NCBI GenBank assembly: GCA_042218325.1
Contig: JBDGRE010000010.1
Span: 1-64,000, forward strand
DNA length: 64,000 nt
Reading direction: 5' to 3'
Origin: Candidatus Nanohaloarchaea archaeon
Lineage (GTDB): Archaea; Nanohalarchaeota; Nanosalinia; Nanosalinales; Nanosalinaceae
Shown: one piece after another, positions 6,240 to 39,288 of the stretch
Position numbering within the stretch: position 1 is the first letter of the stretch
Layout: every line of letters begins with the position of its first letter
Translations under genes and position numbers: made by a program
The notes under the pieces: generated by a model
Seen by the model: only the letters and a program-made list of their open reading frames with translations
Database searches by the model: none
What the model was told of the DNA's origin: nothing

Positions 6240-6497
6240 TCAGTGCTTGAAGACCTGCTTTTTTTCTTCGAGGAGTTCTAAAGTTTCCTGGTGCATCGCT
6301 TCCGGGTCCTGGCCGTGCAGGAACTCTCCGACCGCATCTATAGCGGCGAAGGCCTCTTCTCTTTTCTGCCGCGGGACCTGGGTGTAGGGACGGTCTGGAA
6401 CTTTCTCCAGGAGCTGCTCGGCCCGGTCATACGGCTGGGGGCTTTGCTCCAGGCCCCTTACGTACTGTGTCTTCAGGTATGGTGGCATCAAGCTCAA
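6240..6497 (-). CDS. Hypothetical protein
   Basis: 85-aa ORF filling the SUI1-Rpp29 gap in the operon direction. Confidence 0.55.
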   Translation of the reverse strand: MSLMPPYLKTQYVRGLEQSPQPYDRAEQLLEKVPDRPYTQVPRQKREEAFAAIDAVGEFLHGQDPEAMHQETLELLEEKKQVFKH

Positions 6498-6531
6498 GAA
6501 GGCACGTAAAAGTTATTACATGTTCGCCATC

Positions 6532-6840
6532 TCAGGCGTTGATTTCTATCTGTGACTCATCGAATCCTTCCTCTACGAGTACATCCTTGATGCGCCGTGT
6601 GTGGTCGCCCTGGAGCTGTATCTGGCCGTTCTTCGCGGTCCCCCCGCATGCCAGCTTCGACTTGAGGGTGGACGCGAGTTCACTGAGGTCGACGTCGTCG
6701 CCGAGGCCTTCTACAACGGTCATCTCCTTGCCGAACGAGCGGGTGTCGAGCTTGACCTCGATCTTCTGCTCGCCCTTGGCGATAGAATCACATACGCAAA
6801 GGTCCTCGGGCATCCCGCACTTTGGACATGTCTCTGCCAT
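6532..6840 (-). CDS. Translation initiation factor aIF1 (SUI1)
   Basis: CPKCGMPEDLCVC, LKSKLACGGT, IQLQGDH. Confidence 0.95.
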   Translation of the reverse strand: MAETCPKCGMPEDLCVCDSIAKGEQKIEVKLDTRSFGKEMTVVEGLGDDVDLSELASTLKSKLACGGTAKNGQIQLQGDHTRRIKDVLVEEGFDESQIEINA

Positions 6841-6845
6841 TACAG

Positions 6846-7043
6846 TCAGTTACGCTCGTTAAGAACAGTTTTGATGCGTGCGATGGTTTTCTTCATCTCT
6901 TTTATGCGCCCGGGGTTGTCGGCGAATCCTCCGACCTCTATCTGTCCTCTCTCCTCTACGAGTTCCTTCTGGAGGTCGGTAAGCTGCTCCTTTAGCTCGC
7001 TGTCGTCCATGTCGCGTGCGTCTTCTGCCGTCAGTATCGCCAT
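6846..7043 (-). CDS. rpl29: 50S ribosomal protein L29 (uL29)
   Basis: NPGRIKEMKKTIARIKT. Confidence 0.95.
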   Translation of the reverse strand: MAILTAEDARDMDDSELKEQLTDLQKELVEERGQIEVGGFADNPGRIKEMKKTIARIKTVLNERN

Positions 7044-7081
7044 CTCAGTATGTCACCTTACTCTTCGACCGGTTTAAAGCT

Positions 7082-7564
7082 TTACTCGCGGTTCTCCAGC
7101 CATTCCTTGAAGGTTTTCCGGTCCTTGTTATCTTTCTCTGCCTCAAGCGCCGCGTCCCAGTCAGGGTTCTCGAGCTCTTGGAGCTGGTCCTTGGCGCCGC
7201 TGATGGTGCCCGAGACGATTTCCTCGTAATCAGCTTCCGCTGTCTCTGCTTCTGTCTCTTCCTCCTCTGTGTCGGTTTCCGGCCCCTCTACCTCGGTCTC
7301 TTCTTCAACGGTTTCTTCTTCCAGTTCCTCTTCGTATTCGAACTCTTCCGTTATCTTGAGCTCGGCGCGGGAGGTGTTTTTTCCGAAGCCGGTGTAGATA
7401 CCCTCGACCTCGATAGAGTTTTCGTCTAGGTTGTTCTCGGCCGCTATCCTTGATACCACGTCTTCTCTGCTCGGTGTCGGGCTGTCCTCGTGCGTGAGAA
7501 CCACCTCTGCCTCGAACCTGTCGAGCAGCGGGTTCTCCCGTACCGAAGTGATTTCAGCTTCCAT
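7082..7564 (-). CDS. rps24e: 30S ribosomal protein S24e with acidic linker and extra C-terminal domain
   Basis: RENPLLDR, H...TPSR, TGFG; follows Spt4. Confidence 0.93.
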   Translation of the reverse strand: MEAEITSVRENPLLDRFEAEVVLTHEDSPTPSREDVVSRIAAENNLDENSIEVEGIYTGFGKNTSRAELKITEEFEYEEELEEETVEEETEVEGPETDTEEEETEAETAEADYEEIVSGTISGAKDQLQELENPDWDAALEAEKDNKDRKTFKEWLENRE

Positions 7565-8426: not shown

Positions 8427-8807
8427 CTACTTCAGGCCGTGGCTGTTCTGGACTTCCAGCTTCTTCTTGCTGCGGATTATCACGGTCTCCGCGTCTGTCT
8501 CGTCCAGCCGCTCCCGCAGTTCTCTGTCGTTGGTGGCGATGACGTACTCGTCGCTGAGCTTCACGAGCAGATCATCGACGCTACCCTCGCCCTCCGTTTT
8601 GAGGACTTCGATGTCCTGGGTCTCCAGCAGTTTCTCCACCAGCGCGCGGTACTTCCCGGACTCGATGCTCTTCGCCTCCTGCACCGCATCATCCAGCGTG
8701 TATATCTCCGCATCCGGATACAGTTCTTCGAGCTGCTCGAAAAGGTCGAGCGAGAGCTGGAAAGGCGCCACCAGGAAGTTCGTGTCGAGAATCACTTTCT
8801 TCCTCAC
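8427..8807 (-). CDS. PIN-domain nuclease (Fcf1/Utp24-like)
   Basis: VILDTNFL, VDD, IATNDRELR; GTG at 8807 overlaps the upstream stop (GTGA). Confidence 0.88.
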   Translation of the reverse strand: MRKKVILDTNFLVAPFQLSLDLFEQLEELYPDAEIYTLDDAVQEAKSIESGKYRALVEKLLETQDIEVLKTEGEGSVDDLLVKLSDEYVIATNDRELRERLDETDAETVIIRSKKKLEVQNSHGLK

Positions 8808-10024
8808 TCCGGCCACCTCTCTTCGAACAGCTCCTCCGGTTCTATGTCCGGCTTCCGGAACATGCCGCCGGCCTCGGCCTCTTCCGCGAACTTTTCGGCC
8901 CACTCCGGGTTGAGCTTACCCATCAGCAGCGGCCATCTCTCGCCCTCGTAATCCTGCCATTCACGGTACCCGTTCTGGTAGATATGGTGTCTCAGCGCCT
9001 TCCGGTTCCTCGCGACCAGGTAGAAGCTCCGGTCGACACTACCGCCGAGCTCTATGAGCTCCTCGACGATATCCTGGAACTCACCCCGGTAGTCGTCGCT
9101 CTGCGCGATCCGGTACGCTGCTACAAGGCGCAGGTGGTAGTCGAAGTCCTGTCTCTCGAACGCCGCACCCGTTTTCCGCTCCCGGTACAGTGCGCCGCCC
9201 TCCTCAGTTGTCGTATAGAAAGGTGTGTGGACACCGGGCAGGTCCGGGAACTCGTTCCCCCCGGCCTTGAAACCGTTGTGCGCGCGGACGACGTGAAAGG
9301 TCTCGTGGATGGTGAGCATCCGTGCCTCCTCCTCCGAGTACTTCCTCTCCTCGTCGCGGCCTCTCGCCACCACCAGCGTCCGTTCCTCCGGTATGTTGAA
9401 GCAGCCCTTCACGTCCCGCACCTCGACGCTGTAGTCGATCCCCAGCCCTTCGAGTTCCTCGCGGAACATCTCCGCGAGCTGCTCCGCATCGGCCGTTTTC
9501 TGCTCTTCTACCGGGTCCAGCTCCTCCAGCCTCTCTATGGATTCCTGCAGCACTTCCTCACCGGGTAAAGGCCATATCTCCCGGGAGCACTTTTTCCAGG
9601 AGTCCTCGTCCTCTATGTTCGCCCCCAGCCGCGTGTAAAGCTTCAGCTCCGTGAAGATCTCCTGGAAGAACTGCTGCATATCCACAGGTTTCAAAGTCTC
9701 CGCGCCGTACCGGTCGAGGTGTATCTTTTCTATCCGTCCCGACGCCTCGATGCACTGGTCGAGAACGCCGAGCAGCTTCTCCTCGCTGTGCGGAAACTCG
9801 CTGAACTCGAACTTCGGCCGGAACTCCTCTCCTTCCCTGTATGCCTCCTTGAAGCGCTTTCTTTCCTCGCCACGATTCTCTATGGTTATGTTCTTTATCC
9901 AGGAAGTCCTGTCGACCAGCTTTCTGGCCGCGTCCGAGAGCTGCTGCACAAGGTGTTCCTGGTCGAAATCCAGCTCAGGTTCCGGTGTTTCTTCGAGTTT
10001 TTCTATCTGCTTGGCGGGTTCCAT
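8804..10024 (-). CDS. DUF1704/MATCAP-like zinc metallocarboxypeptidase
   Basis: IHETFHVVRAHNG (HExxH) plus downstream TEEGGALYRE; IYQNGY and LLMGKL near the C-terminus; likely ATG at 10024. Confidence 0.75.
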   Translation of the reverse strand: MEPAKQIEKLEETPEPELDFDQEHLVQQLSDAARKLVDRTSWIKNITIENRGEERKRFKEAYREGEEFRPKFEFSEFPHSEEKLLGVLDQCIEASGRIEKIHLDRYGAETLKPVDMQQFFQEIFTELKLYTRLGANIEDEDSWKKCSREIWPLPGEEVLQESIERLEELDPVEEQKTADAEQLAEMFREELEGLGIDYSVEVRDVKGCFNIPEERTLVVARGRDEERKYSEEEARMLTIHETFHVVRAHNGFKAGGNEFPDLPGVHTPFYTTTEEGGALYRERKTGAAFERQDFDYHLRLVAAYRIAQSDDYRGEFQDIVEELIELGGSVDRSFYLVARNRKALRHHIYQNGYREWQDYEGERWPLLMGKLNPEWAEKFAEEAEAGGMFRKPDIEPEELFEERWPE

Positions 10025-10070
10025 GGCTTTAAGAAGAGGTATAAAGCCGTAACTGTTTAAATCCAACATC
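10025..10070. promoter_or_regulatory. Divergent promoter pair in a 46-bp gap
   Basis: TATAAA 10040-10045 (+) about 30 nt before ATG 10071; TTTAAA 10055-10060 (-) about 30-35 nt before ATG 10024. Confidence 0.6.
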
Positions 10071-11000
10071 ATGATGGTCTCGATAGCAGTCCTCTGGGAC
10101 AGCGTCACCTGGGAAGGCAACGAACCCAGTGAATACGAACCTGTCAACCCGGCCTACAGGGTTTTCAGCCAGCTGGCCCGCGAGAAAGGTGGCAGGGTAT
10201 ACATGGCTCACTACAGCTGGTACCGGGATGGCGCTCTCGATAGAGCGTTCTGCTTCAGGGATGGCGAGTGGCGCAGGGTCGAGGAAGTCGATGTCGACGT
10301 AGTGTTCGACAAGTCGGACATGAGTGAAGACTCGCGGGAGGTAAAGAAACGTGTTTCTGAGGAGCTACCTGTGATAAACGACTACCGGCTGCAGGAGCTC
10401 GTGAACGACAAGCTCGAGAGCTACAGGAGTTTCCCGGATCACATCCCGGAGACCCGGGAGGCGGACAGGGAGGACGTGGAAGAGATGCTCGACGATTACG
10501 GCCGCGTGGTCCTCAAGCCGCGATCCGATTACGGGGGGACCGGTGTCGAGGTCATAAACAGCATCGACGATTTTGAGCCGCGGGAAGGATTGCTGGTCCA
10601 GAGGTTCGTGGACCCGACCGAAGGCCTTCCAGGCTTCGATGTCAGCGGGCCGCACGACCTGCGTATTCAGGTGCTCAGCGGCGATCCTGCAGGAGCGCAG
10701 GTCAGGGTTCCTGAATCAGGGTGGGTCAGCAACGTGCACCGTGGCGGGGAGACTTTCTTCGTCGAACTGGAGGATGTCCCGGACCGGGCGCTGGAGATAG
10801 TCGAGGAGGTCGCGGAAGTACTCTCTGCGCACGACCCGTCTTTCTACTCCGTGGACTTCGTATTCGACAGGGATGGCCGGCCGTGGATACTCGAGTTGAA
10901 CTCCAAGCCGGGGCTGGTTTTCTACGGCAGCGAAGAACTGGAGGAATCCAAGAAGAAGCTGATGGAAAAGGTCGTGGAAGAGCTGGTAGATGCCGTCTAA
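10071..11000 (+). CDS. ATP-grasp peptide ligase (RimK/YheCD-like)
   Basis: NDKLESY, VLKPRSDYGGTGV, LVQRFV, DLRI, SNVHRGG, SVDF, LELNSKPG. Confidence 0.85.
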   Translation: MMVSIAVLWDSVTWEGNEPSEYEPVNPAYRVFSQLAREKGGRVYMAHYSWYRDGALDRAFCFRDGEWRRVEEVDVDVVFDKSDMSEDSREVKKRVSEELPVINDYRLQELVNDKLESYRSFPDHIPETREADREDVEEMLDDYGRVVLKPRSDYGGTGVEVINSIDDFEPREGLLVQRFVDPTEGLPGFDVSGPHDLRIQVLSGDPAGAQVRVPESGWVSNVHRGGETFFVELEDVPDRALEIVEEVAEVLSAHDPSFYSVDFVFDRDGRPWILELNSKPGLVFYGSEELEESKKKLMEKVVEELVDAV

Positions 11001-11869
11001 GATCGCTTCATGGCTTTTTCGTGCATCCGCTCCACGAGCTGCAGGACGACGTCCTGGCCGATTATCTCGTTCATTGTCTCGTTCACGGCGAACGCGCCGT
11101 TGACCTCGATTATGTAGTAGTCGCCATCCACTTCTATCATGTCGCAGCCGCAGATATCGAAGCCCGTGGATCTCGCGGCTCTCAGCGCGATCTGCTCCAT
11201 CTTGTCGTTTACCTCCACGTCGATCCTTTCGCCCCCCGCGGAGATGTTCGAGCGCCAGTCCTCGCCTCCCGAGGTCCTGCCGTACGCGGTCACGTAGTCG
11301 CCTATCACGACCATTCGCGTGTCGCTGCCGCCGTGCTCTATGTACTCCTGGAGGCAGATGTCCTGCTCCAGTGACTTCATCGTATCCATGACCGGCTTCA
11401 GCTCGTTCTCGCTGCCAGCCCGCATGACGCCTGTACCGCCCGCGCCTCTCACAGTCTTCATTATGACCGGGTAGCCCAGTCTCTCCGCGGCGCTGACCGC
11501 CATACCTGGTGACAGGGTGTAGACGGAGTCAGGTACGTTGACTCCGTTCTCCGCGAGCACTTTCATGTTGTAGAACTTGTTTGAGTCGTATGCGAACGTG
11601 TCGTTCTCGGCCTGTGTTACAACGCCCTCGTTGTTCAGCACTTCCACGAGGTGCTCGGCGAATATGGCGTCACGGTCATCTATCCGGACGTAGACCGCAT
11701 CGAACTCTGTCAGGTCGATATCCTTGTAGAGAACTTTCTGTTCCTCCCCGTGGACGTACTTGAGGCCGTCGACCGGGGCCGCGAGCACGGAGTCGAATAT
11801 GTCTTCCGCCCTGTCGATTATCAGCTGGTGCTTTGTCGATATCTCGCCGTAGACTATCGCCAGCTTCAT
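10997..11869 (-). CDS. RimK/LysX-family alpha-L-glutamate ligase
   Basis: YPVIMKTVRGAGGTGVM, LQEYI, DTRMVVIG, WRSNISAGG, CGCDMI, IEVNG. Confidence 0.9.
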   Translation of the reverse strand: MKLAIVYGEISTKHQLIIDRAEDIFDSVLAAPVDGLKYVHGEEQKVLYKDIDLTEFDAVYVRIDDRDAIFAEHLVEVLNNEGVVTQAENDTFAYDSNKFYNMKVLAENGVNVPDSVYTLSPGMAVSAAERLGYPVIMKTVRGAGGTGVMRAGSENELKPVMDTMKSLEQDICLQEYIEHGGSDTRMVVIGDYVTAYGRTSGGEDWRSNISAGGERIDVEVNDKMEQIALRAARSTGFDICGCDMIEVDGDYYIIEVNGAFAVNETMNEIIGQDVVLQLVERMHEKAMKRS

Positions 11870-12676
11870 CTACGGGCCCTCCTTTAGGTGGTCTGCTACC
11901 ATCGAGTAAGCGTTTTTGCCGGAGACCTCTGTGTACATCTCAAGGTCAGGGTTGGGATTCAGGTCGAACACCTGTTCACCTCTCATGAGAACCTCGGCGA
12001 CCGGCGCCCCTATCGCGCGGGCTGTCTCCCTGACGGTCTCTTTCTTCTCATCCGATACGTTGGAGTATTTCAGGCTGTCCTTGCTGAAGCGCCAGCCGTC
12101 GGAGCTGTCTTCTATCGATATTATCCGGTCGCCCACTACGAGGCAGCGGTACTTCTCGCCATCCTTCAGCTCGTGGAAGAGCAGGACGTCCTCCTCGTAC
12201 TCGGAGCCCTGCACGAAGTCCTTGACCTCTTCTATCCCGTACATCTTCCTGCTCTCCGTCTCCTCGAGGTCCTCGAATCTCCTGCCGACCGCCGGTAGTT
12301 CCAGTTCCTGCTCTATGTTCCTTGCTGCTTTCTCCGTCGCCACCGCGACGGTCCTGGGGGCGGGAAGCCCTCTCTCGTTCAGGACGTAGTAGAGGTAGTT
12401 CTTCTTCGACATCACGAAGAACGCGGTGGACGGGTAGTTGGTGTGTACGCCGCGCTCCTGCATCGTCTCTATAAGAACCCGGCCGAATATAGCGTTTTTA
12501 GGCGGTAACCGGAGGAAGGCGGCGTCGAACTTCCCTACAGTGTCCTCGTCGGCCCGTACATCTGCTTTACCTTCGATTATCTCGGGTGAGAGGTTGTCTA
12601 TATCTTTATGTTCGACTTCCTCGAAGAACTCCTCGAACTCCGGTACATGGCTTTCAGCTGCTATCAGGAGCCTCAT
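11870..12676 (-). CDS. Degenerate RimK-like ATP-grasp protein (probably non-catalytic)
   Basis: Same fold pattern (GLPAPRT, YRCLVVGD, DLNPNP) but lacks the K-P..G..G.GV loop and the SN...GG motif. Confidence 0.7.
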   Translation of the reverse strand: MRLLIAAESHVPEFEEFFEEVEHKDIDNLSPEIIEGKADVRADEDTVGKFDAAFLRLPPKNAIFGRVLIETMQERGVHTNYPSTAFFVMSKKNYLYYVLNERGLPAPRTVAVATEKAARNIEQELELPAVGRRFEDLEETESRKMYGIEEVKDFVQGSEYEEDVLLFHELKDGEKYRCLVVGDRIISIEDSSDGWRFSKDSLKYSNVSDEKKETVRETARAIGAPVAEVLMRGEQVFDLNPNPDLEMYTEVSGKNAYSMVADHLKEGP

Positions 12677-14195
12677 CTTCTTCCTCCCCCTCCGGGTTCC
12701 AGAGCCTCGTGACCCTTTCGCCCGACCTCCAGTTCTCCATGTAGCTCTCCAGCGGTTCAGGCATCGCTTTCGTAAGCAGTCTTCCCTGCCGCAGTATCTT
12801 CCTGAGCCGGGTCTCCAGCGTCTTCGACAGTTCGTCGTAGTAAGTCTTCTCCGAGTACATGAGCTCGTTCTTCAGCCTCCAGTGGGCGGTGGTCCCTTCC
12901 GGCGCGATGACCATGTAACCGCCGTCAGGCAGCTTGTCCATGGCCTCGTAAAGGTCCTTCTGGTCGACGTAGTAGACGCCTCCCATCCTCCGGTTAGGAT
13001 CTATCACCAGTACCTCTTCTCCCTCCATGCCGACCGCGAGCACGTAGTTACCTTCCTCGGCCTCCGGGAACAGCTGTGACTTGTCGAAGTAAGGTATCGC
13101 GACCGCGCCGTCGTTGAACCAGGCCTTCAGCTCGTCGCCGAGCTCTGTTATCTTCTCTATCTCGACGAAGCCGGCTCTCGCGTCTTCCTCTGTCAGCTCC
13201 TCGACCGCCGCCATCAGCTCCGCGGGTTCTGTACCTTCTTCTGTAGTCCCTGCCTTCTCGCCGATCTCATCTTGATCGTACCGGTAGCCGAGGATGTCGA
13301 GAGCCATCTCGACCGAGGCAGGTCCGCAGTAGGACGGCTGCTGCGCAACGAAATGCTTCTTTATATCCTCGAGAGTGTCGATATCGCTCTTCGTCCTCTT
13401 GAACTTGACCTGTGAGTCCATGACCTCACTGTTCGGTGTGAGCAGGGTGTATCCGGTATCTGTTTCCACGGTAGTGCTGAAAAGAGAGATGTTCCTTATC
13501 TCGCCCTTGTCTTCCTCAAGCCTTACCTCTTCTCCCGGCCGGACAAGCCGCGAGTTCTTGAGGTATATGCCGGCCGCGAAGTTCTGGAACAGGTCCTTGA
13601 AGCCGTAGAAAAGAAGGCCTGCTACGAGGAACGCGGCAGCCCACGAGGAAGCGGTGACGAGCTGGTCGACGAACGTCTCCCCTATACCGAGCTGTCCCAG
13701 GGCTATCTGCAGCAGCAGTAGGTACAGGAAAGCCTTGAAAAGGCCGGCCGTGACCTCGAGTGCGCTGCCGGAAAGCCCTATCTCCTGGAAGTAACGTTTG
13801 ACTCCGAGCGCCTCGAGCAGCTCCGCCCCTATCTTTGTCGAAAGGTCGATAGCTATGATGCCCAGTATGCCGACAAGTGCGGCCGAGACCAGCCGGGGAA
13901 GGAACTCCACGAACTCGGTCGTTACCTGGGTGGTGATGCCTGTGTTGAGGTACAGTAGCGCCAGTATGACTACAGCACCGTCAAGCAGGTAGTTGAGGTA
14001 CTGGAGTGCCTCATGTCTCTCCTGTATATCTTTCTTCGAAAGGCCCTGCTTGCCGGATATCCATACTCTTCTCAGGAGCTTGTCGAACAGCTTGACGCCT
14101 ATGTGGCCGAATACAAGTATCAGCAGGGCGAAAAGCACCCTTACAAGGGCGTCCTCACCGCTCGCGGGTGCGAGCAGGGACGAGTTCAGGGCCAT
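12654..14195 (-). CDS. MscS-family channel fused to a C39/papain-like domain
   Basis: Multiple TMs, KDLFQNFAAGIYL..RPGEEV..ISLFSTT..PNS (MscS), then QQPSYCGPAS...GNYVLAVG...VIDP. Confidence 0.82.
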   Translation of the reverse strand: MALNSSLLAPASGEDALVRVLFALLILVFGHIGVKLFDKLLRRVWISGKQGLSKKDIQERHEALQYLNYLLDGAVVILALLYLNTGITTQVTTEFVEFLPRLVSAALVGILGIIAIDLSTKIGAELLEALGVKRYFQEIGLSGSALEVTAGLFKAFLYLLLLQIALGQLGIGETFVDQLVTASSWAAAFLVAGLLFYGFKDLFQNFAAGIYLKNSRLVRPGEEVRLEEDKGEIRNISLFSTTVETDTGYTLLTPNSEVMDSQVKFKRTKSDIDTLEDIKKHFVAQQPSYCGPASVEMALDILGYRYDQDEIGEKAGTTEEGTEPAELMAAVEELTEEDARAGFVEIEKITELGDELKAWFNDGAVAIPYFDKSQLFPEAEEGNYVLAVGMEGEEVLVIDPNRRMGGVYYVDQKDLYEAMDKLPDGGYMVIAPEGTTAHWRLKNELMYSEKTYYDELSKTLETRLRKILRQGRLLTKAMPEPLESYMENWRSGERVTRLWNPEGEEEDEAPDSS

Positions 14196-14235: not shown

Positions 14236-15423
14236 TCATTCCAGACCTGTTATCTCTCCTTGACCGATTAAACGCCATCGAGAGCCTATCTGGCGGGAAA
14301 TCGCCACCCGGTCGCCCTCCTCCGCGCATACCGGGACCTTTAACTGGACTCTAACGTTCTCTCCAGCCTGTGTAACTGCTCCAGCGGATTTCTGGGTGCC
14401 GACGTTCAGCATCAGGGTTTCCTTCCCTTTCACGTTCTCTATCTCCTTTTCGTCCTCGGCGCCTACCAGCTGGTCCATCAGTTCGACCTTCATCTCTACG
14501 GTGCTGGTGGACTCGGGCAGCTGGCCCTCGAGCCCCAGAACGTTGCCCGCGAGGCCGTCAGACTTCGCCATGGCGGGGTCAAGATCTGTCTCGACTCCGA
14601 GAAGCCCTCCAGGCCTTCCCTCGTCCACCGGTTTCGATCCTTGCATTATGCCCTCTACCGTTGTCTTGACGGGTTCCCACTCGCCGTTCCTGCGGTTTCC
14701 GGGCCTGAGCTCGATTTCATCGCCTTCTTCGAGTTCGCCCTGGAACAAGCTTCCTCCGACGACTCCGCCGCGGATGTGCTCTGGCGGCGTTCCCGGCTTG
14801 TTTATGTCGAAAGACCGGGCCGCGAGCATCTTCGGCTCCGCGTCCGGGTCCCTGTCGGGAGTCGGGATCTCGCGGTCGATAGCCTCGAGCAGCGCGTCGA
14901 TGTTGACGCCGTGCTGCGCGCTTATCGGGACGATGGGGGCGTCTTCCGCGACGGTGCCCTCCACGAACTCCTTTATCTGCCTGTGGTTCTCCTTTACCTC
15001 TTCCTCGCTGACGAGGTCTATCTTGTTCTGTGCTATGACTATGTTGTCGATGCCAGTTAGGTCGAGCGCGGCGAGGTGCTCCCGGGTCTGGGGCTGTGGA
15101 CATTCTTCATCCGCCGCGATAAGGAGAACGGCGCCGTCCATTATGGCTGCGCCGGATAGCACGTTCGCCATCAGGGTCTCGTGGCCCGGTGCGTCGACGA
15201 GAGAGACTGTGCGTACTTCCTCGCCTTCACCGTCAACGTTGAGCTTCCCGTCGCTGTCGTAGTAAGTCACGTCGGCGTAACCGATACGGATGGTTATGCC
15301 TCGCCGCAGCTCCTCGGAGTGCTCGTCGGTCCATTTGCCGGACAGGGCCTGCGTCAGCGTCGTCTTCCCGTGGTCGACGTGACCTACGAGGCCTATGTTT
15401 GCTTCAGGTATGCCTTCCATCAT
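14236..15423 (-). CDS. eif2g: Translation initiation factor aIF2 gamma
   Basis: GHVDHGKTT, RGITIRIGYA, DAPGHE, QNKID, RSFDINKPG, RWRLIG. Confidence 0.97.
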   Translation of the reverse strand: MMEGIPEANIGLVGHVDHGKTTLTQALSGKWTDEHSEELRRGITIRIGYADVTYYDSDGKLNVDGEGEEVRTVSLVDAPGHETLMANVLSGAAIMDGAVLLIAADEECPQPQTREHLAALDLTGIDNIVIAQNKIDLVSEEEVKENHRQIKEFVEGTVAEDAPIVPISAQHGVNIDALLEAIDREIPTPDRDPDAEPKMLAARSFDINKPGTPPEHIRGGVVGGSLFQGELEEGDEIELRPGNRRNGEWEPVKTTVEGIMQGSKPVDEGRPGGLLGVETDLDPAMAKSDGLAGNVLGLEGQLPESTSTVEMKVELMDQLVGAEDEKEIENVKGKETLMLNVGTQKSAGAVTQAGENVRVQLKVPVCAEEGDRVAISRQIGSRWRLIGQGEITGLE

Positions 15424-15902: not shown

Positions 15903-17336
15903 ATGAGAACCTCGGTGGTGCTGCAGTTCGTAGGAAGGTTCCTGCAGATATTCTCCGTGACACTGGCGCTGCCGCTTCTCATAGCGATATACTACTCCGA
16001 GTCGCTCCTCGTATCCTCCGGTTTCATCATTGCCTCTCTTTCGGCCATGGTACTCGGTTACGCGGTCAAGATGGCGGGGGATACACATGACCCGACCACA
16101 GAGGAGGCGATGTTCGCGACCGTCCTCGGATGGACGCTGGCGATAGGTTTCGGGGCGATACCACTGATGGTACACATGAACATCTTCGATGCGTTCTTCG
16201 AGAGCGCCGCCGGCCTGACGACCACGGGCATCTCGATGTTCCTGGCACCGGAAAAACTGCCCCGCTCCATACTTTTCTGGCGCTCCTTCATGCAGTGGAT
16301 AGGCGGCCTCGGTATACTCACCTTCTTCATCGCGGTCATCAGGGAATCCGGAGGTGTATCACGGAGGCTGTTCTCTGCCGAGGCGCACAAAACCGATTCC
16401 GGCTCTATAAGACCTTCGCTCACGAAATCTATCATAGCGCTGGCAAAAGTATACGGCTTCCTGACCACAGTTATAGTCGTGGTCTACATGATGCTGGGTG
16501 TCAGCCCCTTCAATGCAGTGCTGCACTCGTTCTCCGCGATATCGACGGGAGGGTTCTCCACGATGGCCGCGAGCATAGGAGGTTTCTCGGTACCTGTCCA
16601 GGCCGCTACTGTTGCCTTCATGTTCATCGGAGGTGTCAACTTCGTGCTGCTCTACCGCGTTCTGAAGGCCGACGTATCCGCGCTTGCTCGTAACTCGGAG
16701 TTCCTGCTGTACTCCAAGATATTCCTGCTCGTCGCTGGCTTCGTCTCGCTCGAGCTGCTGATGAAGGGTTATTCGCCTTTTGACGCCGGACTCGAGGGCC
16801 TTTTCCAGTCTGCAGCCCTGATCTCGTCGACGGGGTACGGCACGATATCTCTGATGGGCTTCTCGGCGGTCATGCAGCTCATCTTCATCGCCGTTATGTT
16901 CGTCGGCGGCTCGCTAGGCTCGACATCTGGAGGCCTGAAGATATTCCGCCTGAAGACGTTGATGGAGCTACTGAGGACGAGGATACGCGCTTACTCGCTT
17001 CCCGAGACCGCGATCAACGAGGTGAAGATAGACGGGCAGATCCTGGAGAGCTCCACGGTCAGGACCATCTCGGTACTGTTCTTCATCTGGGCGGCGTCCA
17101 CGTTCCTGCTCGCCGCGTTCACCATGGCTTTAGAGGGTGTCGGGCTGATGGCCGCCATGTCCGGCAGCGTCTCGGCTATAGGCAATATGGGGCCCGTCTT
17201 CATGGAGGGTGAACGGATGGTGGCTCTGTCACCGCTTGTCAAGGTGGCGTGGATAATAGGGATGCTCGCCGGTCGACTGGAGATGCTGCCGCTGCTGGCA
17301 ATCTTTAATAGCGACCTGTTCAAAGACTTTTCCTGA
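15903..17336 (+). CDS. trkH: Trk potassium uptake membrane protein TrkH
   Basis: FESAAGLTTTG, QWIGGLG, ISTGGF, GGSLGSTSGGLK, GRLE. Confidence 0.95.
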   Translation: MRTSVVLQFVGRFLQIFSVTLALPLLIAIYYSESLLVSSGFIIASLSAMVLGYAVKMAGDTHDPTTEEAMFATVLGWTLAIGFGAIPLMVHMNIFDAFFESAAGLTTTGISMFLAPEKLPRSILFWRSFMQWIGGLGILTFFIAVIRESGGVSRRLFSAEAHKTDSGSIRPSLTKSIIALAKVYGFLTTVIVVVYMMLGVSPFNAVLHSFSAISTGGFSTMAASIGGFSVPVQAATVAFMFIGGVNFVLLYRVLKADVSALARNSEFLLYSKIFLLVAGFVSLELLMKGYSPFDAGLEGLFQSAALISSTGYGTISLMGFSAVMQLIFIAVMFVGGSLGSTSGGLKIFRLKTLMELLRTRIRAYSLPETAINEVKIDGQILESSTVRTISVLFFIWAASTFLLAAFTMALEGVGLMAAMSGSVSAIGNMGPVFMEGERMVALSPLVKVAWIIGMLAGRLEMLPLLAIFNSDLFKDFS

Positions 17337-38454: not shown

Positions 38455-39288
38455 ATGAGTTTCCACTTCCGGTTTCTGGCCGCTGCCACGAAGGCGCTCG
38501 CGGAGTACAGCATAACCACTACCGACTTCATAACGGCCGTGGTGGTAGCAGTCGTGGGATACACGGTGAACGAGGCCTCCAACTACCTCGTCGACCGGGA
38601 GGTCGAGCGGAGAGGGGGCGACGAGCACGCGGCCAAGTCCGCGAAACGGGTTACCGCGTACGTCATCTACCCTCTCACATTTGTCATCATCCTCGGCGTC
38701 TTCGGCGTCCCGCTTTCCGGGCTCGGAACCGCGGTAGGACTCATCGGCCTCGGGATCTCGTTCGCGCTGAAAGATATGATAGCCAACTTCATCTCCGGCA
38801 TCCTGATACTGATTAACCGTCCGTTCAAGATAGGCGACCAGATCAAGGTGGCCGGGGAGGAGGGAACCCTGCGGGACATCAAGCTCCGGGCGTCGGAGAT
38901 AAAGACGTACGACGGCAGGAAGGTGATAGTCCCGAACTCCGACCTGTACAACAAGGTGGTCATCAACAACACGGCGTACGACGAGCGCCGGTTCGAGGTC
39001 ATAGTCGGGATGGGCTACGACGATGATATCAAGAAGGCCCGCGAGCTCGGGTTCGAGGCACTTGACGAGGCGGAAGGCGTCGAGGATACGCCGGATTCTC
39101 AGGTGCTGGTCAACGAGCTCGGGGATTCAAGCGTCAACCTGAAGCTGCGCGGCTGGACGAAGCCTTCGAAGGCCAACATGGTGAAGAGCTCGAGCGAGGT
39201 CGCGGAACTCGTCAAGAACAAGTACGACGAGGCCGGTATCGACATCCCGTATCCCATCAGGACGGTCTTCATGCACGAAGAGGCCTGA
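38455..39288 (+). CDS. mscS: Small-conductance mechanosensitive channel
   Basis: ISFALKDMIANFISG..RPFKIGDQI, IVPNS, GIDIPYP. Confidence 0.92.
   Translation: MSFHFRFLAAATKALAEYSITTTDFITAVVVAVVGYTVNEASNYLVDREVERRGGDEHAAKSAKRVTAYVIYPLTFVIILGVFGVPLSGLGTAVGLIGLGISFALKDMIANFISGILILINRPFKIGDQIKVAGEEGTLRDIKLRASEIKTYDGRKVIVPNSDLYNKVVINNTAYDERRFEVIVGMGYDDDIKKARELGFEALDEAEGVEDTPDSQVLVNELGDSSVNLKLRGWTKPSKANMVKSSSEVAELVKNKYDEAGIDIPYPIRTVFMHEEA

Follow-up and report, generated by a model that had tools for sequence, protein, structure and literature searches.

A nanohaloarchaeal cassette joining a RimK pair to an MscS-papain fusion protein, with exchangeable ligase and peptidase genes: a possible system of glutamate-chain ligation and trimming

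RimK, an ATP-grasp ligase, makes poly-alpha-glutamate and glutamylates RpsF, RimB trims it, and the rloABC genes are needed under hypo-osmotic stress (according to the available part of PMC11957051). MATCAP-family enzymes trim tubulin tails, from which C-terminal residues and polyglutamylation are removed (available part of PMC10499314). Genes of these kinds stand together in the stretch of DNA analyzed here, the first 64,000 nt of contig JBDGRE010000010.1 of a Candidatus Nanohaloarchaea archaeon (assembly GCA_042218325.1), referred to below as the window; its source genome is approximately 1.07 Mb and 96 % complete. Between the aIF2-gamma gene and a PIN gene the window carries a five-gene cassette: a fusion of an MscS-type membrane protein with a papain-like (C39-like) domain, a dead RimK paralogue, an intact RimK, a YheCD-type ATP-grasp ligase and a MATCAP-like metallopeptidase (Table 1). 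An earlier note on this DNA had placed these five genes at the same positions and assigned them to the same families, and gene calls, profile searches and folds bore this out in each case.

The cassette is read here, tentatively and with a rough probability of 0.45, as a membrane-associated ATP-dependent system that would ligate and trim alpha-L-glutamate chains, in the form of free or loosely bound oligo- or poly-glutamate, and serve ionic and osmotic homeostasis. Gene content, conservation, catalytic-residue states and folds were computed, and from them we infer a complex, a glutamate substrate, a hand-over between peptidases and the physiological role.

A three-gene core conserved across Nanohaloarchaeota

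The genes for the MscS-C39 fusion, the dead RimK and RimK form a near-universal, single-copy core in this reduced symbiont phylum. Searches located the region encoding the C39-like domain and the tail behind it in 64 of 70 phylum genomes, and RimK in 38 of 41 relatives. The order was identical in all 29 loci holding the three genes, always with the dead RimK in the middle, and the median gaps were -18 nt and +2 nt. aIF2-gamma lies directly upstream of the core in 27 of these loci; the remaining two are cut by contig ends. The whole cassette was met again in 9 of 16 fetched loci and the three-gene core in 20 of 20 further ones. Co-occurrence in relatives, on which the earlier note had beforehand staked its proposal, thus held for the core. 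Its picture of one five-gene unit has to be corrected, the core being conserved and the YheCD ligase and the peptidase being the contents of an exchangeable slot. A motif scan of genome contigs returned 16 loci, mostly of Nanohaloarchaea, and, being made with one narrow motif, says little on wider distribution.

The cassette fills the gap between aIF2-gamma and the PIN gene, as had been claimed, and the two genes stand directly side by side in both core-less genomes examined. One of them, G028, is the one sampled genome (93 % complete) of a different family of the same order, and its orthologues are non-acidic, with D+E 0.135 and K+R 0.140 vs 0.220 and 0.099 in the window, so judging from protein composition this organism may not be a salt-in halophile. 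In a tree of dead RimK and RimK from 26 genomes, G002 and G016 of the window family grouped with two other families of the order, which reflects either two deep core types or lateral replacement.

The junctions agree with the earlier description throughout. The MscS-C39 and dead RimK frames overlap by 23 nt (12654/12676), dead RimK and RimK abut (11870/11869), and RimK converges with the plus-strand YheCD ligase in a 4-nt overlap. The ligase and the peptidase diverge from a 46-bp spacer in which a TATA-like box, GGTATAAAG, stands approximately 27 nt upstream of the plus-strand ATG and another, GTTTAAAT, approximately 30 nt upstream of the minus-strand ATG; they are putative promoters of the two genes. 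The peptidase frame is open over 8804-10147(-), i.e. 447 aa from a TTG; homologues start from the ATG at 10024, which makes a protein of 406 aa. At its other end the TGA (8806-8804) overlaps a GTG (8807-8805) as GTGA, and alignments of PIN homologues start at this GTG.

Outside the sampled core loci the RimK pair recurs with other membrane proteins. Nanoarchaeota archaeon SZUA-1535 has a gene for an MgtC-family protein followed by a dead RimK, RimK and TBP, divergent from rpoE1-spt4, and in the divergent nanohaloarchaeon GLR72 (L071) dead RimK and RimK are followed by a plain MscS protein of 266 aa without the C39 domain. The counterparts of the dead RimK in both lack catalytic features too. 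By gene content, the recurring unit is a membrane protein with a dead RimK and a RimK. These data bear on the possibility that the neighbours have no joint function and owe their proximity to inheritance within a syntenic lineage. The flanking genes (TrkH, rps6e, aIF2g, PIN, rpoE1) are equally conserved in order, which speaks for low rearrangement. Against this, core genes overlap or abut in 29 loci, the combination was re-created independently with other partners and in another order, nothing but ligases and a peptidase occupies the accessory slot, and a bacterial MATCAP-like gene is paired with an ATP-grasp gene. The absence of joint function is therefore considered very improbable. In most loci, as in the window, the gene for TrkH-type K+ uptake stands two genes away from the cassette.

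RimK of the window matched PF08443 (E 1.9e-31) and scored 141.8 bits with TIGR00768, just under the subfamily threshold of 143.4. The profiles of MptN (119 bits), LysX (111.5), PRK10446 (95.5) and CofF (80.4) were all far below their own cut-offs, and the nearest solved structures were the RimK proteins 7qyr, 5zct and 4iwx (E approximately 2.5e-23), ahead of LysX/ArgX. The ATP-grasp catalytic set (K138, G142/144/145/147, R206-S207-N208, D243, E255, N257) is complete and was invariant in 26 sequences. The protein thus appears to be an intact member of the alpha-L-glutamate ligase family, predicted to add glutamate. The earlier note had allowed that it might belong with LysX, CofF or MptN and act on a cofactor. 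Searches of the 96 %-complete genome for CofE, LysW, beta-RFAP synthase and GCS2 retrieved none of the four, although each search gave matches in a control. Since these partner genes were not found and the nearest solved relatives are true RimK proteins, a role in F420, lysine (LysW) or methanopterin synthesis is unlikely.

The dead RimK gave weak matches to the LysX, MptN and rimK_fam profiles (E 7.6e-7 to 5.3e-5) and PF08443 at E 0.11. None of the 20 aligned sequences retains the Gly-rich loop, the R-x-N and GG motifs or the first Mg-binding Asp, which are either absent or substituted; the protein is therefore taken as a conserved pseudo-enzyme that probably serves RimK as a scaffold or regulator. 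A CDC123-like role, in which a dead ATP-grasp protein beside aIF2-gamma would be an assembly factor (available part of PMC4431377), was also considered; the R2K_2 and R2K_3 matches were weak, below the cut-off and on the other ligase.

The N-terminal half of the fusion protein has about five hydrophobic segments, a pore-lining TM3 helix and a beta-domain, and the block ...FQNFAAGIYLKNSR.VRPGE... is conserved in the alignment. Pfam matches were MS_channel_2nd (PF00924, E 2.6e-8), MS_channel_1st_1 (PF05552, 2.6e-5), Peptidase_C39 (2.3e-6) and Peptidase_C39_2 (6.4e-6). By these signatures this half belongs to the MscS-type channel family and channel function is predicted. Another part of the window encodes a second, plain MscS-type paralogue that lacks the C39-like domain.

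Residues 270-435 (approximately) of the fusion form the papain-like domain, related to C39 and phytochelatin synthase, and are followed by a helical tail of about 65 residues (~436-500), the best-conserved part of the protein. By sequence the profile of this domain and tail retrieved nothing meaningful from the PDB. A predicted model of residues 266-513 had a predicted local distance difference test score (pLDDT) of 85.3, and structure comparison gave no solved match for the tail. For the domain, VIA returned Z 17.2 with PeiR (8z4n_A; 147 aa, root-mean-square deviation (rmsd) 2.3), 15.2 with Alr0975 (6th5_B) and 15.2 with ComA (3k8u), in a range of 14.5-17.2 over PeiR, Alr0975, ComA and PCAT1, in which the C39 domains of ComA and PCAT1 took 14.5-15.2. 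The model therefore points to a papain-like (clan-CA) fold to which PeiR, phytochelatin synthase and C39 correspond about equally well. The catalytic columns of the window protein hold Cys290, Asn383 in place of His and Asp399, so the Cys-His-Asp triad is incomplete. Among 160 full-length homologues the triad is complete in 110, the Asp is kept in 158 and the Cys-His dyad is lost in 50. Because the catalytic His is gone, the C39-like domain of the window is probably inactive as a peptidase. A search of 1.84 billion representatives with the domain-plus-tail module gave 86 matches (E <= 0.001). Almost all are the same fusion, 480-545 aa long and matched in its C-terminal half; going by these matches, the module is essentially confined to the MscS-papain fusion.

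The presence of a C39-like domain next to ATP-grasp enzymes raises the question of a graspetide-like ribosomal peptide, whose precursor would be cyclised by the ligases and freed of its leader by the C39-like domain on export. Graspetide ligases are indeed ATP-grasp enzymes (available part of PMC8939145), and the structural matches include C39 domains from ABC exporters. This explanation is hardly credible here: there is no room for a precursor gene (window gaps of 46 bp and 40 bp, core-gene medians of -18 to +48 nt), no ABC transporter is present, nearly all genomes of this reduced symbiont phylum carry the system, in single copy, and the C39 dyad has been given up in nearly a third of the homologues.

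Ligases and a peptidase in the exchangeable slot

Between zero and three YheCD ligases stand in tandem in the slot between RimK and PIN, whose other occupants vary among the MATCAP-like peptidase, additional copies of RimK, a carboxylate-amine ligase of the YbdK/GCS2 type and a gene of 344-364 aa. Among 41 relatives the peptidase was found in 24, the YheCD ligase in 20 and the YbdK/GCS2-type ligase in 7, the peptidase and GCS2 never occurring together (0/41). The 344-364 aa gene, on the opposite strand in three genomes, matched no Pfam or NCBIfam family.

The YheCD ligase of the window matched PF14398 at E 7.9e-16 (58.5 bits, cut-off 26.8) and TTL at 8.4e-7. K149, Q177, D196, R198, R212, N221, D262, E275 and N277 were invariant or nearly so in 23 sequences. 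As a single sequence it found no match in the PDB; the family profile matched the ArgX-type 3vpb (7.1e-10), GshB 1gsa (1.2e-7), RimK and, faintly, TTLL7 (3.3e-5). These matches place the ligase in the RimK/GshB/TTL group, with ArgX/LysX, GshB and RimK nearest to its profile.

The peptidase of the window scored 18.6 bits with PF08014 (E 0.00099), under the cut-off of 27, and 26.9 bits with TIGR02421 (QEGLA) over residues 106-399 (E 2.7e-6, cut-off 338.65). PF08014 matched all 16 aligned homologues at E <= 1, the best of the canonical ones at 2.9e-52. The gluzincin site, H240-E241-x-x-H244 with E275-G276 downstream, is invariant in the 16 sequences and follows the pattern of HExxH and a Glu about 30-35 residues further on in an E-G-(L/G)-A motif. 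For TMCP1/2 the catalytic residues are named as E281, E329 and E364 (available part of PMC10499314). Single-sequence and profile searches of the PDB with the peptidase gave no match. The predicted model (pLDDT 94.2) had human MATCAP, 7z5g_A, as its best structural match (Foldseek E 9.5e-5; VIA Z 18.8, rmsd 3.4 Å, 270 aa), followed in VIA by DUF885 (Z 16.4) and M32 carboxypeptidases (Z approximately 10). Its relatives and its predicted fold thus argue for a divergent member of the MATCAP/QEGLA (formerly DUF1704) family, its own profile score being under the cut-off.

The YheCD ligase was present in 15 of 15 window-family genomes that carry the close form of the peptidase, including four in which the peptidase is located elsewhere. 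The writer-eraser logic that the earlier note had seen in the ligase and the peptidase fits this co-occurrence; the link of the peptidase to the core is less secure and rests on few events. The state of the papain-like dyad was scored against the peptidase in 26 genomes. Cys and/or His were lost in 14, of which 13 have the peptidase, and the dyad was intact in 12, of which 10 have none and the other two carry only the canonical form located among the ribosomal stalk genes. The pattern suggests that the gluzincin took over trimming from the papain-like domain. Tests on independent pairs (dyad loss with peptidase, GCS2 with intact dyad, peptidase with ligase) had too few pairs (p = 1).

GCS2 and the fold of the papain-like domain could also mean a small gamma-glutamyl or thiol peptide pathway, like those of glutathione or phytochelatin, with the ligases as makers of a short non-ribosomal peptide and the papain-like domain as a transpeptidase at the membrane. 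The best Foldseek match of this domain is the primitive phytochelatin synthase Alr0975 (2bu3_A, E 8.2e-8), some homologues of the fusion carry a precomputed PF05023 match, the YheCD profile matches GshB, and the GCS2-type ligase follows RimK in the seven relatives that have it, all seven with an intact Cys/His dyad. However, GCS2 is missing from the search results for the window genome and 34 of 41 relatives, yet the core persists; by VIA phytochelatin synthase ties with the C39 domains and stays below PeiR; and RimK is nearest to true alpha-glutamate ligases. Such a pathway is accordingly regarded as quite unlikely.

Outside the cassette, the peptidase gene was located in the L11-L1-P0-P1-AlaRS stalk region in 7 of 7 loci (six checked with Pfam; L027 read by the P1 tail only), among which other, unrelated genes are also interspersed. 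On the peptidase tree the location switches at least three times, between the cassette and the stalk region only. Small proteins of 74-87 aa, each with one N-terminal hydrophobic helix and conserved Cys residues, flank the stalk-region peptidase.

The MATCAP-like genes of one Nanoarchaeota and one Woesearchaeota genome have no RimK alongside. In bacteria, a Shinella plasmid carries an N-formylglutamate-amidohydrolase-like (FGase) gene, a QEGLA/MATCAP gene and a GshB-like ATP-grasp gene in a row, followed by an Mrp cation/H+ antiporter, and a Vibrio plasmid carries an FGase-MATCAP fusion with no ATP-grasp gene adjacent to it. In Photobacterium damselae at low salt RimK is induced 52-fold, a 'GshB' gene 38-fold and a QEGLA gene with the next locus tag 27.5-fold (available part of PMC10308900).

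Table 1. Position of the cassette genes, their flanks and other features referred to in the text (window coordinates unless a locus is given)
Feature	Position	Strand	Remarks
aIF2-gamma, flank	14236-15423	-	TIGR03680, 560.8 bits
MscS-C39 fusion	12654-14195	-	513 aa; Pfam MS_channel_2nd and Peptidase_C39
Dead RimK paralogue	11870-12676	-	268 aa; weak LysX/MptN/rimK matches
Intact RimK	10997-11869	-	290 aa; PF08443
YheC/D-type ATP-grasp ligase	10071-11000	+	309 aa; PF14398
Divergent spacer	10025-10070		46 bp; two A/T-rich TATA-like boxes, one per accessory gene
MATCAP/QEGLA-like metallopeptidase	8804-10024 (ATG at 10024)	-	406 aa; assigned by relatives and fold
PIN_9 gene, flank	8427-8903	-	family profile search
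TrkH-type K+ uptake gene	15903-17336	+	
Second MscS-type paralogue	38731-38961	+	inside a 291-aa frame
Slot gene of 344-364 aa, G016	L037:10595-11644	-	
Slot gene of 344-364 aa, G002	L039:10999-12033	-	
Slot gene of 344-364 aa, G022	L040:10079-11173	-	
Small Cys protein	L019:3833-4066	-	
Small Cys protein	L019:5361-5585	-	
Small Cys protein	L027:9545-9781	-	
Small Cys protein	L027:11050-11313	-	
Small Cys protein	L022:12601-12852	+	
Core-less site of G028	L069 (G028:C13:1-16000)		aIF2-gamma beside PIN
Nanoarchaeota archaeon SZUA-1535 genes	L070:8180-8635 to 6399-7286	-	MgtC-family protein, dead RimK, RimK, TBP
Shinella plasmid genes	L073:4412-8174	+	FGase, QEGLA/MATCAP, GshB-like ATP-grasp
Vibrio plasmid gene	L072:5071-7062	+	FGase-MATCAP fusion

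Glutamate chains or protein tails

In the mechanism proposed here the active RimK and its dead paralogue would work as a pair in a complex with the MscS-type membrane protein, whose cytoplasmic side would consist of the papain-like domain and the conserved helical tail. RimK would add glutamate to a carboxyl end, be it of free glutamate, of oligo-glutamate or of an acidic C-terminus. The papain-like domain, which keeps its Cys-His-Asp triad in most Nanohaloarchaeota, would there cut or transfer the product. In the window its His is gone and trimming may have passed to the MATCAP-like carboxypeptidase, which could make a writer/eraser pair with the YheCD ligase. A glutamate-type system is suggested because the slot holds solely amide ligases and a peptidase and the catalytic set of RimK is kept, and a role in the ionic and osmotic homeostasis of a salt-in cell because a membrane partner belongs to the core. 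Free or loosely bound oligo- or poly-glutamate is favoured over protein tails as the main product. The reversible glutamylation with a membrane link that the earlier note had proposed is judged right in kind, the unit being a core with a slot and the C39-like domain probably inactive here.

The product could instead be a code of protein tails, in which the ligases extend and the peptidases trim acidic C-termini (P0/P1, eS6, RpoE1) and the MscS-type protein is a tension sensor tuning these tails, an archaeal counterpart of RimK/RimB acting on RpsF. The sole physiological RimK target known, as given in the available part of PMC11957051, is a ribosomal protein, and the characterised MATCAP enzymes work on protein C-termini (available part of PMC10499314). 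The cassette sits within rps6e-aIF2g-[...]-PIN-rpoE1-spt4-rps24e in the 27 uncut loci, the RimK pair of Nanoarchaeota likewise adjoins rpoE1-spt4, and protein targets find their strongest argument in the recurrent tie of the peptidase to the stalk genes, together with its shifts between cassette and stalk region only. RpoE1 and eS6 of the window end in ...DREE and ...GEED, as the earlier note had stated when naming them as candidate substrates, and runs of Glu end both proteins in most loci. Such tails are, however, general in these acidic proteomes, so that substrates are not singled out by them, and no correlation of the eS6 and RpoE1 tails with the presence of the core was seen (core-less G033 has acidic tails, G028 has not; n=2, too few to be informative). 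The stalk proteins end in ...GLGxLF, not in Glu, and with translation genes making up a large share of 1-Mb genomes adjacency is weak evidence. The tail code also leaves unexplained why a membrane protein is constant in the core and why it is replaced by MgtC or a plain MscS protein. On balance it is considered somewhat unlikely.

Several points weigh against the preferred reading of glutamate-chain ligation and trimming. The location of the peptidase among the stalk genes points to protein targets rather than to free poly-glutamate. In a phylum with conserved synteny, the fixed place after aIF2-gamma may be no more than inherited. Sequence does not tell which amino acid each ligase adds, and the papain-like fold matches gamma-glutamyl and isopeptide-bond enzymes as well as C39 peptidases, which concerns the type of bond. 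The dyad state changes only twice on the dead RimK and RimK tree, so no test of its link with the peptidase can reach significance. An ATP-grasp neighbour was present at only one of the two annotated bacterial QEGLA loci examined. Finally, the enzyme activities, the complex and the product are predictions from sequences and models.

A bolder view would extend the glutamate-chain reading to an ancient DPANN machine, in which a membrane-docked RimK/pseudo-RimK pair would shift free glutamate to chains and back according to membrane tension or ion status, buffering osmolarity and the K+/Mg2+ counter-charge of very small cells. The accessory pair would then be a prokaryotic forerunner of the tubulin-tail writer and eraser, perhaps acting also on the acidic tails of stalk and other translation proteins. 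Taken as a whole this view is unlikely.

Relation to described systems

The near-universal presence of this lineage-specific system in genomes of approximately 1 Mb suggests importance for life as a salt-in symbiont. Several of its parts are unusual: the MscS-papain fusion, the obligate pseudo-RimK and the pairing, in archaea, of a MATCAP-like peptidase with an ATP-grasp ligase. If glutamate ligation by an enzyme of the ribosome-modifying, poly-glutamate type is tied physically or genetically to a mechanosensitive-type membrane protein, this would be a new mode of control. The dead RimK, and the papain-like domain whose active site has decayed repeatedly, offer clear, assayable cases of pseudo-enzymes. 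The neighbourhood, in archaea as well as bacteria, of ATP-grasp ligases and a peptidase of the MATCAP family would give a prokaryotic context to enzymes so far known only from the eukaryotic tubulin tail. No description of the archaeal cassette was found in the literature searched, which did not include Iyer et al. 2009 (Mol Biosyst), reportedly a treatment of ATP-grasp/peptidase gene links that possibly covers part of it.

With the MscS family the fusion shares the pore-helix and beta-domain signatures, and with the clan-CA proteins (C39, phytochelatin synthase, PeiR) the fold and, where the triad is complete, the Q...C, H, D arrangement. It departs from MscS proteins in that the usual C-terminal cytoplasmic domain is replaced by a papain-like domain and a tail seen nowhere else. 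The bacterial QEGLA proteins (TIGR02421) belong to the same peptidase family, stand beside an ATP-grasp ligase on the Shinella plasmid and in P. damselae have consecutive locus tags and co-induction at low salt (available part of PMC10308900). Unlike the archaeal proteins of approximately 360-410 aa, they are approximately 630-660 aa long and contain, or lie beside, an N-formylglutamate-amidohydrolase-like part.

The tubulin enzymes TTL/TTLL and MATCAP/TMCP likewise pair an ATP-grasp ligase with a gluzincin of the MATCAP family, which shortens acidic C-termini and takes off polyglutamylation (available part of PMC10499314). The window peptidase has the same predicted fold, the HExxH motif and the downstream Glu, and the YheCD ligase a weak TTL/TTLL signal. 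There is no tubulin here, though, the ligase is YheCD/GshB-like and not of the TTL family, and the peptidase scores below its family cut-off.

RloABC of Pseudomonas aeruginosa is similar in having three parts, a membrane protein with a domain of papain-like fold, a RimK-like ATP-grasp enzyme and a peptidase (available part of PMC11957051). Going by the same source, the papain-like-fold domain is always inactive in RloB, whereas here it is inactive in a minority of lineages; RloABC has a seven-transmembrane protein with a periplasmic transglutaminase-like domain where the cassette has an MscS protein with a cytoplasmic C39-like domain; and its peptidase is secreted, with no dead-RimK partner described in that part of the source. 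The likeness is architectural only, and no homology of the membrane and peptidase parts is claimed.

The RimK/RimB(/RimA) system of Pseudomonas, with RimK of E. coli, differs in its eraser, which here would be a gluzincin of MATCAP type or a papain-like domain rather than a retropepsin, and in that the cassette has an obligatory dead-RimK partner and an MscS-type membrane partner. Archaea are without bS6, and no cyclic di-GMP regulator is present at this locus. What the two share is an ATP-grasp alpha-L-glutamate ligase with a dedicated peptidase that removes, or in the cassette is predicted to remove, glutamate, and a possible dual product of poly-alpha-glutamate and a protein tail (available part of PMC11957051); the solved RimK proteins are also the best sequence matches of the window RimK.

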